Of a stretch of DNA of 64,000 bases, positions 1 to 2,750 are shown piece by piece. This DNA comes from Escherichia coli (GTDB lineage Bacteria; Pseudomonadota; Gammaproteobacteria; Enterobacterales; Enterobacteriaceae): assembly GCF_030013595.1 (NCBI RefSeq), contig NZ_CP122768.1; one strand, 5' to 3'. A program made the position numbers and the translations under genes. The notes below the pieces were generated by a model that saw only the letters and a list, made by a program, of their open reading frames with translations, had not been told where the DNA came from and made no database searches. Each line of letters starts with the position of its first letter. Position 1 is the stretch's first letter.

Positions 1-73
1 TATCTTTTTGCCCGACAGGATAAGCATGAAGAACGGGAATATCTGCCAGCTCGCGTGATTCTATTTCAATCAT
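1..73 (-). CDS. yjfP: Partial CDS (first 24 codons only, runs off window start): YjfP-like esterase
   Basis: Reverse-strand ATG at 71-73 translates MIEIESRELADIPVLHAYPVGQKD and continues past position 1; matches remembered YjfP N-terminus and expected position next to bsmA. Confidence 0.5.
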   Translation of the reverse strand, partial: MIEIESRELADIPVLHAYPVGQKD

Positions 74-254
74 CTGTCTCTCCTTTTTGTCTGGTATGAC
101 ATGAAGAAATCCTTAGCACAAGTTTCTGCTGGCGGTATTAGTTCATAATGTTGAGATGTGGGTTACGCTTTCGTCACGTTTTCATTCGAAAATCGCGTAC
201 CAGGTAACAATTCGGGAACATTCCCCCAAAGTTAAATTAATAAGGCACTACACT

Positions 255-584
255 ATGGTTAGCAGGAAACGTAATAGCGTTATTTACCGGTTTGCCAGTT
301 TATTATTGGTGTTAATGTTAAGTGCCTGTAGCGCACTGCAAGGTACGCCACAGCCAGCACCGCCAGTAACGGACCATCCGCAAGAGATTCGCCGCGACCA
401 GACGCAAGGGTTACAGCGAATAGGTAGCGTAAGCACGATGGTTCGGGGTTCTCCGGATGACGCATTAGCAGAAATCAGAGCGAAAGCTGTCGCTGCAAAA
501 GCTGATTATTACGTTGTCGTCATGGTGGACGAAACCATCGTGACAGGACAGTGGTATTCACAAGCCATTTTGTACCGTAAATAA
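255..584 (+). CDS. bsmA: DUF1471-family lipoprotein BsmA (YjfO), 109 aa
   Basis: ORF 156..584 trimmed to ATG at 255 (MVSRKRNSV...); signal peptide with lipobox LSAC; length matches remembered K-12 protein. Confidence 0.8.
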   Translation: MVSRKRNSVIYRFASLLLVLMLSACSALQGTPQPAPPVTDHPQEIRRDQTQGLQRIGSVSTMVRGSPDDALAEIRAKAVAAKADYYVVVMVDETIVTGQWYSQAILYRK

Positions 585-732
585 ATCAGACAACTTACAT
601 AGTCAGCTTTACATTGCTTTGCGTCCCTATGCGTTTACCTGTGCACAATAAATTACCGGCTGGAAGCTCGGGCGTTTATTACCGCGATGGAATGCCCTGC
701 AACATGTGGGGAAACGAAAAATGGAGCTGACG

Positions 733-1008
733 ATGAAACAATTACTTGCCTCACCCTCGCTGCAATTAGTGACTTATCCTGCGAGCGCCACGGCACAGTC
801 TGCAGAATTCGCCAGTGCTGACTGCGTGACGGGCCTGAATGAAATAGGTCAGATCTCAGTTAGCAATATTTCAGGGGATCCGCAGGACGTGGAACGTATC
901 GTGGCGTTAAAGGCCGATGAACAAGGTGCGTCATGGTACCGCATTATTACCATGTACGAAGACCAGCAGCCTGATAACTGGCGCGTACAGGCGATACTGT
1001 ATGCATGA
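733..1008 (+). CDS. yjfN: DUF1471-family small periplasmic protein YjfN, 91 aa
   Basis: ORF 706..1008 trimmed to ATG at 733 (MKQLLASPSL...); paralogue of adjacent bsmA; convergent with aidB as expected. Confidence 0.8.
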   Translation: MKQLLASPSLQLVTYPASATAQSAEFASADCVTGLNEIGQISVSNISGDPQDVERIVALKADEQGASWYRIITMYEDQQPDNWRVQAILYA

Positions 1009-1033: not shown

Positions 1034-1067
1034 GCCGGATGCGGCGCGAGCGCCTTGTCCGGCCTAC
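1034..1067. repeat. REP (repetitive extragenic palindrome) element
   Basis: gccggatgcggcgcgagcgccttgtccggcctac, imperfect palindrome of the enterobacterial REP type, between convergent yjfN and aidB. Confidence 0.6.
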
Positions 1068-1124: not shown

Positions 1125-2750
1125 TTACACACACACTCCCCCCGTCGCCCGCAGCAATAAATCATTCTGGATCTGCTCTGACAACCGTACGCCGCCGCGC
1201 GTATCTAACATCACCTGACACCACGCCTGCGCCATTGGCGGAGAGGCATATTTCAACATTTGCGCACCGCAGCCCAGCAGGAATAGCTGATGAGTAATCT
1301 CTCGCCCCAGTTCTTCAGCTGGCTTACGCAGCTGCTGTTGTAAACGACGTACCGCGCGATCAAAATAGCGATCCTGCCCTTTCACTTCCACAAATGCTTC
1401 CGATAATAAGTCGTATACACCCGCTTGCTTATTGAGCACGCGCAGTACATCCAGGCACATAATATTACCGGAACCTTCCCAAATACTGTTTACCGGCATC
1501 TCCCGGTAAAGCCGCGGCAGCTCGCTCTCCTCGCTATAACCAATGCCGCCCAGCACCTCCATCGCTTCGGCCACAAACGGCATACCTCGTTTGCAGATCA
1601 CAAATTTCGCCGCAGGCGTAAATAAACGCGCCCACAGGGCTTCTTTGGCATCGGCACGCCGGTCCCACGCTCGCGCAAGACGAAACAGCAACGCCGTTTG
1701 CCCTTCAAGCTGAAGTGCCATGCGACTTAAGACATGACGCATAAGGGGCTGTTGGATCAATGGATTACCAAAAACATGGCGTTGATGGGCATGATAAATC
1801 GCCAGCGAAAATGCACGGCGCATCATGGCATGGCTACCCAGGGCGCAATCAAAACGCGTCATCCCACCCATTTTCAGGATCAGACGAATTCCTTCCCCTT
1901 CCTGCCCCAACAACCAGCCAATGGCATCCTGAAACTCCACTTCGCAGCTGGCGTTAGAGCGATTACCCAGCTTATCTTTCAGCCGCTCGAGGCGAATCGC
2001 GTTGCGTTGCCCGTCAGGCAAAAAGCGCGGCACAAAAAAGCAGGACAAACCGCCCGTAGTCTGCGCCAGCACCAGATGCGCATCGCTTTGCGGCACCGAG
2101 AAAAACCATTTATGCCCCACCAGCCGATAAGAGCCATCTTCCAGGCGCTCTGCGCGGGTGGTGTTGCTCATGACATCGGAACCGCCCTGCTTTTCCGTCA
2201 TTCCCATGCCAATCAACAAACCGCGTTTTTGCCCACCTGGCAATAAGTGAGAATCGTAGCGATCGCTCAACAGCGGCGTGCTCCAGTCCTGAAACGGCGC
2301 GGGTAACATCTGTAACAGCAATGGCGTGGCGGCAAAGGTCATCGTTATCGGACATAACGACCCTGCCTCAACCTGTGCGTGCAACATCAAACGCGCCGCG
2401 CGCGCCACAAATGCGCCGGAGCGAGCGTCTTCTTCCCAGGCAAGATTGTGCACCCGATTGGTACATAGCGCCTGCATCAATAGGTGCCAGGCGGGGTGAA
2501 AACGCACATCGTCCAGACGCCGCCCCTGGGCATCGTAGCGCAATAATTCAGGCGGATTCACATTCGCCAGCCGCCCCAGTTCAAGGGATTCAGCCGTTCC
2601 TAACTGCTGACCAATACTGGCTAGAAAATCGCTATCCCAGCCAGCACCTTCACGCGTTACCGCTTCGCAGAGCGCGCCATCAGACAGGTATAAGTTGCTG
2701 TTATTTAATGGTATAGGTTGATTAAAAACGGTGTGAGTTTGCCAGTGCAC
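1125..2750 (-). CDS. aidB: Isovaleryl-CoA dehydrogenase-like adaptive-response protein AidB (acyl-CoA dehydrogenase fold), 541 aa
   Basis: ORF 1125..2768; probable GTG start at 2750 (VHWQTHTVFNQPIPL...); acyl-CoA dehydrogenase-like sequence throughout. Confidence 0.9.
   Translation of the reverse strand: MHWQTHTVFNQPIPLNNSNLYLSDGALCEAVTREGAGWDSDFLASIGQQLGTAESLELGRLANVNPPELLRYDAQGRRLDDVRFHPAWHLLMQALCTNRVHNLAWEEDARSGAFVARAARLMLHAQVEAGSLCPITMTFAATPLLLQMLPAPFQDWSTPLLSDRYDSHLLPGGQKRGLLIGMGMTEKQGGSDVMSNTTRAERLEDGSYRLVGHKWFFSVPQSDAHLVLAQTTGGLSCFFVPRFLPDGQRNAIRLERLKDKLGNRSNASCEVEFQDAIGWLLGQEGEGIRLILKMGGMTRFDCALGSHAMMRRAFSLAIYHAHQRHVFGNPLIQQPLMRHVLSRMALQLEGQTALLFRLARAWDRRADAKEALWARLFTPAAKFVICKRGMPFVAEAMEVLGGIGYSEESELPRLYREMPVNSIWEGSGNIMCLDVLRVLNKQAGVYDLLSEAFVEVKGQDRYFDRAVRRLQQQLRKPAEELGREITHQLFLLGCGAQMLKYASPPMAQAWCQVMLDTRGGVRLSEQIQNDLLLRATGGVCV

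Follow-up and report, generated by a model that had tools for sequence, protein, structure and literature searches.

Two adjacent DUF1471 genes of Escherichia coli, bsmA and yjfN, and their probable origin by an ancient tandem duplication

According to Eletsky et al. 2014 (PLoS One 9:e101787, PMC4092069), the expansion of the DUF1471 family is compatible with repeated rounds of duplication and divergence. The same authors offered the adjacency of yjfN and yjfO in Salmonella as an example of duplication. The products of these genes have been studied to some extent. BsmA (YjfO) is the biofilm stress and motility protein, with a role in biofilm and peroxide stress (Weber et al. 2010, Microbiology 156:139, as cited in PMC4092069 and PMC4447067). 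YjfN has been described as a suicide activator of the periplasmic protease DegP. It engages DegP through its C-terminal alanine, activates the protease and is degraded (Kim, Song, Eom and Kim 2018, J Bacteriol 200, as cited in bioRxiv 10.1101/2024.12.25.630354 and PMC12096828). Another system of similar design is RcsF, an outer-membrane lipoprotein that senses stress. Its fold similarity to DUF1471 was already remarked by Eletsky et al. (PMC4092069). However, RcsF carries redox-active disulfides, and DUF1471 proteins lack them (PMC4092069).

The pair analysed here is the gene pair cited by Eletsky et al. It is real, its interpretation by the sequence-only reading was correct, and it was already known: each gene has a name and an annotation, and earlier work has cited their adjacency as pointing to duplication. 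The test of sisterhood, the synteny of outgroups and the direction of the event are absent from that paper and are added here.

The window is a stretch of 64,000 nucleotides of E. coli DNA. Its bases 1-1200 are 100% identical to NZ_CM149870.1 (E. coli chromosome), and the RefSeq annotation of that record gives intervals identical to the ORFs read from the window sequence. The names bsmA and yjfN, assigned from the letters at 255-1008, agree with these intervals. The locus was matched in 5,424 of the 5,426 complete E. coli genomes and is thus part of the core genome. The window BsmA is identical to K-12 BsmA at 108 of 109 residues, with K75R as the sole difference. YjfN has the same sequence as in K-12. 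It does not differ from the characterised DegP activator and ends in the same hydrophobic residue (...ILYA). The coordinates of all features are collected in the table.

Table. Features of the bsmA-yjfN locus, in positions of the window
Feature	Position	Strand	Remarks
yjfP (esterase), 5' end	1..73	-	Divergent from bsmA; RefSeq annotation of the identical locus
bsmA promoter and leader	74..254	+	Blocks conserved across genera (alignment of 13 genera)
Conserved block TTCATAATGTTGAGA	142-156	+	Upstream of bsmA
Palindrome TTTTCATTCGAAAAT	179-193	+	Conserved, upstream of bsmA
Palindrome GGGAACATTCCCC	214-226	+	Conserved, upstream of bsmA
Conserved block CTACACT	248-254	+	Just 5' of bsmA
bsmA (yjfO) CDS, 109 aa	255..584	+	ATG 255 to stop 584; RefSeq
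BsmA lipoprotein signal peptide	255-326	+	Residues 1-24
BsmA lipobox L22-S23-A24-C25	318-329	+	Cys25 at 327-329
BsmA Pro-rich linker	about 330-410	+	Conserved
BsmA DUF1471 domain	411-578	+	Residues 53-108
CpxR-like direct repeat GCAAA-GCAAT-GTAAA	608..622	-	Upstream of yjfN; TTTAC-N5-TTTGC on the + strand
-10-like hexamer CACAAT	644..649	+	Presumed yjfN promoter, from conserved columns
Small leader stem-loop (CCCTGCA / TGTGGGG)	695..711	+	yjfN leader, single-sequence folds
yjfN translation start region	721..735	+	In-frame ATG 721, SD GGAG 723-726, annotated ATG 733
yjfN CDS, 91 aa	733..1008	+	ATG 733 to stop 1008; RefSeq
YjfN N-terminal export peptide	733-801	+	Residues 1-23
YjfN DUF1471 domain	835-1002	+	Residues 35-90
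YjfN C-terminal Ala91	1003-1005	+	
Single REP-type palindromic unit	1034..1067	.	Presumed REP, between convergent yjfN and aidB; GCCGGATGCGGCGCGAGCGCCTTGTCCGGCCTAC
aidB	1125..2750	-	Convergent right-hand neighbour, fixes the syntenic site; RefSeq annotation

Two entries of the ORF list are artefacts of the listing, the ORF at 156-584 (142 aa) and the alternative GTG start of yjfN at 706. In both, the upstream part overlaps conserved non-coding blocks or is not conserved. The palindrome between yjfN and aidB, which from its consensus we take to be a REP unit, forms a stable hairpin in the fold. Its match to the REP-derived naRNA4, the only Rfam hit at E<=1, is below threshold (30.6 bits, where the gathering score is 59.5).

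The two proteins had been placed in the same family, and the HMM search agrees. Against Pfam PF07338 (DUF1471, YdgH_BhsA-like), BsmA gives E 2.1e-15 (56.9 bits) and YjfN gives E 2e-17 (63.4 bits). Both matches cover all 55 model positions and exceed the gathering cut-off of 27 bits. On the NCBIfam models, BsmA passes the BsmA equivalog NF011433 with 152.7 bits (cut-off 100). For YjfN, the YhcN model gives 51.8 and the BsmA model 51.0. The AlphaFold model of YjfN has a mean pLDDT of 81, with values of at least 89 across the domain. In Foldseek it matches the solved DUF1471 structures 2M2J, 4EVU (TM 0.87, rmsd 1.5 Å), 2MA8 and 2JNA. The model thus predicts for YjfN a small alpha+beta fold like that of the YdgH domains, SrfN and YahO, the members with solved structures. 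Single-sequence searches of the PDB with YjfN or BsmA retrieved zero relatives, and the family profile alone found them.

A profile search of 1.84 billion representative proteins returned just 510 family clusters at 50% identity. Apart from a few records with doubtful labels, the named relatives all belong to Enterobacteriaceae, Yersiniaceae, Erwiniaceae or Pectobacteriaceae. Among the relatives retrieved, PF07338 is restricted to Enterobacterales. The doubtful labels include one 'Chryseobacterium' and one 'Pseudomonas aeruginosa'.

The N-terminus of BsmA reads MVSRKRNSVIYRFASLLLVLM-LSAC. A positively charged n-region is followed by a hydrophobic core and then by the lipobox, which agrees with the pattern [LVI][ASTVI][GAS]C placed after a positive n-region and a hydrophobic h-region. 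The lipobox LSAC proposed for BsmA is therefore well founded. The lipobox cysteine is present in all 79 BsmA orthologs, as L-x-[GAS]-C. Seven of them fall outside the stricter pattern, with the variant lipoboxes LCGC and LNGC. The cysteine is followed by a conserved tether, C-S-x-L-Q-G-T-P-x-P-x-P-P...P-Q-E-I-R-R-x-Q-T, and the +2 residue is serine in 66 of the 79 orthologs. According to the +2 rule, a serine at this position, and no aspartate, directs a lipoprotein to the outer membrane by the Lol pathway. Because of this serine, BsmA is predicted to be an outer-membrane lipoprotein. Its C-terminus reads ...SQAILYRK.

BsmA and RcsF share one layout, in which a lipobox and a proline-rich tether precede a small alpha/beta domain. 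RcsF (2Y1B) is also the next match of the YjfN model after the DUF1471 structures (E 6e-3). The NCBIfam model of RcsF matches BsmA weakly over the signal peptide and linker, and this match is not significant (E 0.079). The likeness of BsmA and RcsF would thus be a functional analogy and not membership of a shared family.

Mature YjfN is highly conserved across orthologs. The segment AEFASADC and AEFASADCVTGLNEIG are invariant. Its sole cysteine is C31, within 'SADC'. This is not a lipobox, because it is placed after the likely signal-peptidase I site, and YjfN is without a lipobox as had been proposed. The N-terminal peptide of the E. coli protein contains a cleavage motif of the A-x-A type (ATA|QS). 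The peptide is weakly hydrophobic, with a best 8-residue Kyte-Doolittle mean of 0.9 versus 2.4-2.5 in Citrobacter and Enterobacter. For this reason, the export and periplasmic location of the E. coli protein rest on the literature and not on its sequence. The C-terminus reads ...VQAILYA, and 76 of 78 YjfN orthologs end in LYA or LYV. An alanine or valine as the last residue is found in the YjfN subfamily alone; in every other subfamily the last residue is K, R, Q, H or N. This hydrophobic end matches the published mechanism of DegP activation.

The spacer between bsmA and yjfN (585-732) was aligned across 17 genera. It presents one strongly conserved block, TTTACAyTGCTTTGCGTCC...CCTG-TGCACAAT. 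The direct repeat in this block differs by one mismatch from the CpxR consensus GTAAA-N5-GTAAA (pattern search). A CpxR-like box with at most two mismatches is present in all 79 orthologous spacers, and it is the best-conserved spacer block. In many genera, a third CpxR-like half-site lies 10 bp further upstream. The window contains 6 sites with one mismatch or none, where 3.1 are expected; such sites are thus not rare, and it is the conservation that carries the weight of the evidence. Regarding regulation, yjfN falls within the CpxR iModulon, and for Salmonella it has been listed as CpxAR-regulated (PMC7657598, PMC5428311). It is absent from the direct CpxR targets of a ChIP-exo study (PMC7657598). 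From the conserved repeat, CpxR would bind at the putative box 608-622.

The scan for sigma-70 and terminator consensus sequences gave neither a promoter nor a terminator between bsmA and yjfN. The promoter positions are therefore placed from conservation only. The presumed -10 hexamer reads CATAAT in Klebsiella, Yokenella and Trabulsiella. The spacer has no terminator-like site, so transcription from bsmA could read through into yjfN.

The leader of yjfN may fold into a small hairpin of -6 to -11 kcal/mol. It lies at the same position in most genera, where the stem sequences differ and the pairing is kept, and it is deleted in Klebsiella and Raoultella. The mean z value of only -1.2 gives it modest support. 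RNAalifold, applied to a MAFFT alignment of this leader, missed the local hairpin and proposed instead four invariant pairs of GCCC with the SD region, without covariation. The sequence ATGGAGCTGACGATG, which contains the SD and the two in-frame ATGs of yjfN, is near-invariant across genera. By Ribo-RET, translation of yjfN initiates at two sites, the annotated start and another one shortly before it (bioRxiv 10.1101/520783).

Within the conserved blocks upstream of bsmA, the CATAAT at 144-149 is a candidate -10 element of this gene. The intergenic region of yjfP and bsmA is bound by sigma-S RNA polymerase in ChIP-seq, and it forms open complexes with the sigma-S holoenzyme only (PMC4447067).

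To relate the two proteins, we compared them with the other eight K-12 paralogs (rclB, yahO, ybiJ, mcbA, bhsA, ydgH, yhcN and yjfY). BLASTP aligns BsmA and YjfN with 26 identities in 87 positions (30%, E 4e-8). The similarity is significant, in line with the sequence-only reading. In the all-against-all BLASTP, the best E. coli paralog of BsmA is YjfN (33.5 bits, versus 21 for the next). For YjfN, the best is YhcN (42.4 bits), followed by BsmA (33.5). With wider sampling, E. coli YjfN matches a BsmA-type protein (52.8 bits) above YhcN (48.5). The subfamily profiles were compared with hhalign. BsmA finds YjfN first (80.2) and then YhcN (70.1). YjfN finds BsmA first (80.65), practically tied with YhcN (80.32). 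The nearest relatives of YhcN by profile are BhsA, YbiJ and McbA.

The C-terminal motif QA[IL]LY had been taken as a mark of the whole family. The ends of BsmA and YjfN do share it. However, it is not family-wide: TAVIYK, TATIYK, TAELYK, SADIYR and similar sequences form the ends of the remaining eight paralogs in E. coli. The QAILY end and a T-x-G-L-x-x-IG segment are common to BsmA and YjfN only. A hairpin loop longer by three residues is present in BsmA and YjfN, also in YjfY and the YdgH domains, and is missing in YhcN.

A neighbour-joining tree was built from 132 domains and 67 columns, taken from the best 150 of the 510 clusters. The BsmA and YjfN subfamilies are each monophyletic (94% bootstrap). 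In the point estimate they are sisters; the joint node has 40% bootstrap, and the alternatives reach at most 9%. The tree was extended with Nissabacter-type sequences (up to 136 domains, 67-68 columns), and the support of the joint node rose to 51%. There, the Nissabacter-type YjfN-like proteins group with YjfN of Enterobacteriaceae (65%), and their upstream partners group with BsmA (90%). An independent duplication in Nissabacter has 0% bootstrap. These comparisons point to BsmA and YjfN as sister subfamilies with moderate support, which is not strong because the domain is short.

The rank of YhcN in the BLAST search of YjfN, its near-equal scores in the NCBIfam and hhalign comparisons and the 40-51% bootstrap of the joint node would suit a different history. 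In it, another DUF1471 paralog, for example a YhcN-like one, was inserted or translocated beside bsmA in an ancestor of Enterobacteriaceae. We consider this unlikely. YjfN and YhcN group in 0.3% of the bootstrap replicates, and YhcN has its own closest relatives elsewhere in the family. The QAILY end, the GL-x-x-IG segment and the longer loop unite YjfN with BsmA and are absent from YhcN, and the preference of YjfN for YhcN is reversed when the sampling is wider. In addition, the yjfN copy lies directly downstream of bsmA, on the same strand, in all genomes examined, and in one locus outside the E. coli type (L088, below) the two neighbours are more alike than in E. coli.

The order of the genes was followed in one genome per species. 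YjfN was found in 148 species, and 80 loci of about 25 genera were kept. All are Enterobacteriaceae by name, except one record that is apparently mislabelled. In 79 of the 80 loci, yjfN directly follows bsmA on the same strand, and the pair is flanked by a divergent yjfP and a convergent aidB. The sequence of the eightieth ends 17 bases upstream of yjfN. The gene aidB is 3' of yjfN in 77 loci; in the other three, the sequence ends downstream of yjfN.

Other members of the order present bsmA alone, abutting aidB. This is the case in Yersinia, Rouxiella (two loci), Pantoea and one further locus (L094). The gap between bsmA and aidB is 16-31 nt in Yersinia and Rouxiella, and the 3' ends overlap in Pantoea and L094, so there is no space for a second gene. 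In Pectobacterium, bsmA is also alone, in a different gene context. Two Nissabacter loci and L088 have a lipoprotein of 102 aa followed by a YjfN-like protein of 91 aa, adjoining aidB. The tandem copies are 40.5% identical in L088 (57.8 bits, E 1.7e-17) and 37% identical in Nissabacter (L090), where the spacer has 39 nt. Their YjfN-like proteins end in ...IYR and ...LYR and do not have the hydrophobic end. The short spacer, the ...LYR end and the greater likeness of the copies can be read as intermediate traits. The search for homologs of one divergent YjfN-like protein (P0295) returned itself as the sole match. Because Nissabacter has yjfN and both Yersinia and Rouxiella lack it, either losses or a transfer must be assumed.

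A recent local duplication at the level of E. coli has in its favour the bare adjacency of two family members and nothing else. It is refuted by a synteny that spans genera: about 25 genera carry clear orthologs of both genes in an unchanged order. The locus also belongs to the core of the species. The proteins are also only 30% identical. A DNA repeat search over 1-1300 gave chance matches of 10-20 nt only and no trace of a duplicated segment. A 13-nt match between 505-517 and 943-955 was tried as a relic of the duplication. Its reading frames differ, and it is due to chance. A recent origin has practically no probability left.

Equally negligible is a chance neighbourhood of two unrelated ORFs, which only the short length of the proteins could suggest, against Pfam matches over the full model, a significant pairwise alignment and a predicted YjfN fold like that of solved family members; 10 of about 4,300 genes belong to the family, from which we estimate about 0.02 adjacent pairs by chance, and chance adjacency is unlikely.

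We consider an ancient tandem duplication between yjfP and aidB, which gave bsmA and yjfN and was followed by specialisation, as the best explanation, with a probability of about 0.8. The suggestion of a local duplication is supported to this extent by the best paralog of BsmA, the sister subfamilies, the fixed tandem and the single-copy outgroups, for an event that is ancient and not recent and that predates the radiation of Enterobacteriaceae. The direction and the single origin of the duplication are what we infer from these data. The lipoprotein gene bsmA would be the older occupant of the site, because Yersinia, Rouxiella and Pantoea have no other family gene there. The second gene, yjfN, would have arisen by one tandem duplication, and it is present in the Nissabacter-type loci and in all sampled Enterobacteriaceae. 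It would have been lost, or never been there, in some Yersiniaceae and Erwiniaceae. After the duplication, BsmA would have kept the lipoprotein signal peptide, the lipobox and the proline-rich tether. YjfN would have dropped the lipobox and the tether and become a soluble exported protein. Its gene would have gained a promoter region of its own, to which the conserved CpxR-like direct repeat in the spacer would belong. In Enterobacteriaceae, the C-terminus of YjfN would then have shifted from ...Y-R/K to the hydrophobic ...LYA.

A more specific account of the tandem duplication has about even odds. According to it, yjfN was born from bsmA before the split of Enterobacteriaceae and the Nissabacter type, and it was rebuilt stepwise into a sacrificial activator of DegP. 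The steps would be the loss of the anchor and tether, the internal Cpx-type promoter and the change from ...YR to ...YA, with the Nissabacter-type loci as an intermediate state.

The discovery value of these results is small, and the modest gain is evolutionary. The incremental additions are the outgroup synteny with the direction of the duplication, the innovations of the subfamilies and the conserved blocks 5' of bsmA. These strongly conserved blocks may point to an undescribed regulator. The synteny of outgroups suggests that the lipoprotein gene bsmA is ancestral and yjfN derived. The hydrophobic C-terminus and the Cpx-type promoter would be innovations specific to yjfN. Together they trace a testable path by which a structural protein of the envelope could have become an activator of a protease. 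If the stepwise account is true, the locus would be a compact and datable case of neofunctionalisation in the cell envelope.

The region between yjfP and bsmA contains four blocks that stay unchanged across about 13 genera, two of them palindromes (see table). A comparison of this whole intergenic region with Rfam gave no match.

The 5' leader of yjfN carries a small stem-loop. Its position is constant in most genera, while the stem sequences vary. In Klebsiella and Raoultella, a deletion of 10 nt takes it out. RNAalifold failed to retrieve the stem-loop. We consider, with modest confidence, that this leader forms a stem-loop that has been kept. The N-terminal peptide of YjfN differs among genera. 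In Escherichia, residues 1-23 read MKQLLASPSLQLVTYPASATAQS. The counterpart in Citrobacter, Salmonella, and Enterobacter, MKRTLALTSLLLSAGLVSTTAQS, is far more hydrophobic. In Pluralibacter-like genera, the peptide has just 15-18 residues.

BsmA varies in length among E. coli strains. All these variants are in-frame and lie in the linker and helix. They include duplications of ALQGTPQP, EIRRDQTQ, or QPA, the deletion of QPA, and the deletion of the five residues VAAKA, which has a direct repeat on either side (GCGAAAGCTG and GCAAAAGCTG). Another variant gains 6 extra residues through an altered stop codon. In Escherichia albertii NBRC 107761, the bsmA ortholog presents two in-frame stops, after DHP and after TGQ. 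Therefore, it is probably a pseudogene in that strain; yjfN is intact there.

Repeat elements were found around the pair. In some Escherichia, an element containing AAGTAAGTGACTGGGGTGAGCG is inserted exactly behind the bsmA stop codon. Of the complete E. coli genomes, 5,426 in all, only 3 have this insertion. Intestinirhabdus has a similar element at another point of the bsmA-yjfN spacer. By the ERIC consensus, we take the spacer element to be of the ERIC/IRU type. Between the convergent yjfN and aidB there is one palindromic unit, presumably REP by its consensus. It gave a sub-threshold match to the REP-derived naRNA4 family of Rfam.

Locus L044 comes from a record titled Chryseobacterium sp. 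18061. It contains the enterobacterial block ulaR-yjfP-bsmA-yjfN-aidB, and its content is nearly identical to the locus of Citrobacter sp. 18056 (L043). The record looks either wrongly labeled as to species or derived from a contaminated assembly.

Coordinates of the features in the window or, with an L-number, in the compared locus
Feature	Position	Remark
yjfP-bsmA intergenic region	74-254	four conserved blocks
Block TTCATAATGTTGAGA	142-156	~13 genera
Palindrome TTTTCATTCGAAAAT	179-193	~13 genera
Palindrome GGGAACATTCCCC	214-226	~13 genera
Block CTACACT	directly before bsmA ATG	~13 genera
BsmA length variants	330-510	linker and helix
Repeats around VAAKA deletion	480-504	direct repeats
yjfN leader stem-loop	695-711	
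YjfN residues 1-23	733-801	
REP-type unit	1034-1067	
Repeat insertion	L009, L011, L012	bsmA stop to yjfN promoter block
Repeat insertion	L044, L045	within yjfN leader
E. albertii bsmA	L010:5523-5849	
yjfY	L001:4235-4510	outside window, 8 kb ahead of its start
yjfY	L092:1652-1927	Yersinia

A third DUF1471 gene, yjfY, is of the long-loop type, like bsmA and yjfN. In E. coli, 8 kb with the ula genes separate it from bsmA; in Yersinia, yjfP is the sole gene in between. The yjfY-bsmA-yjfN region may have been host to more than one duplication.
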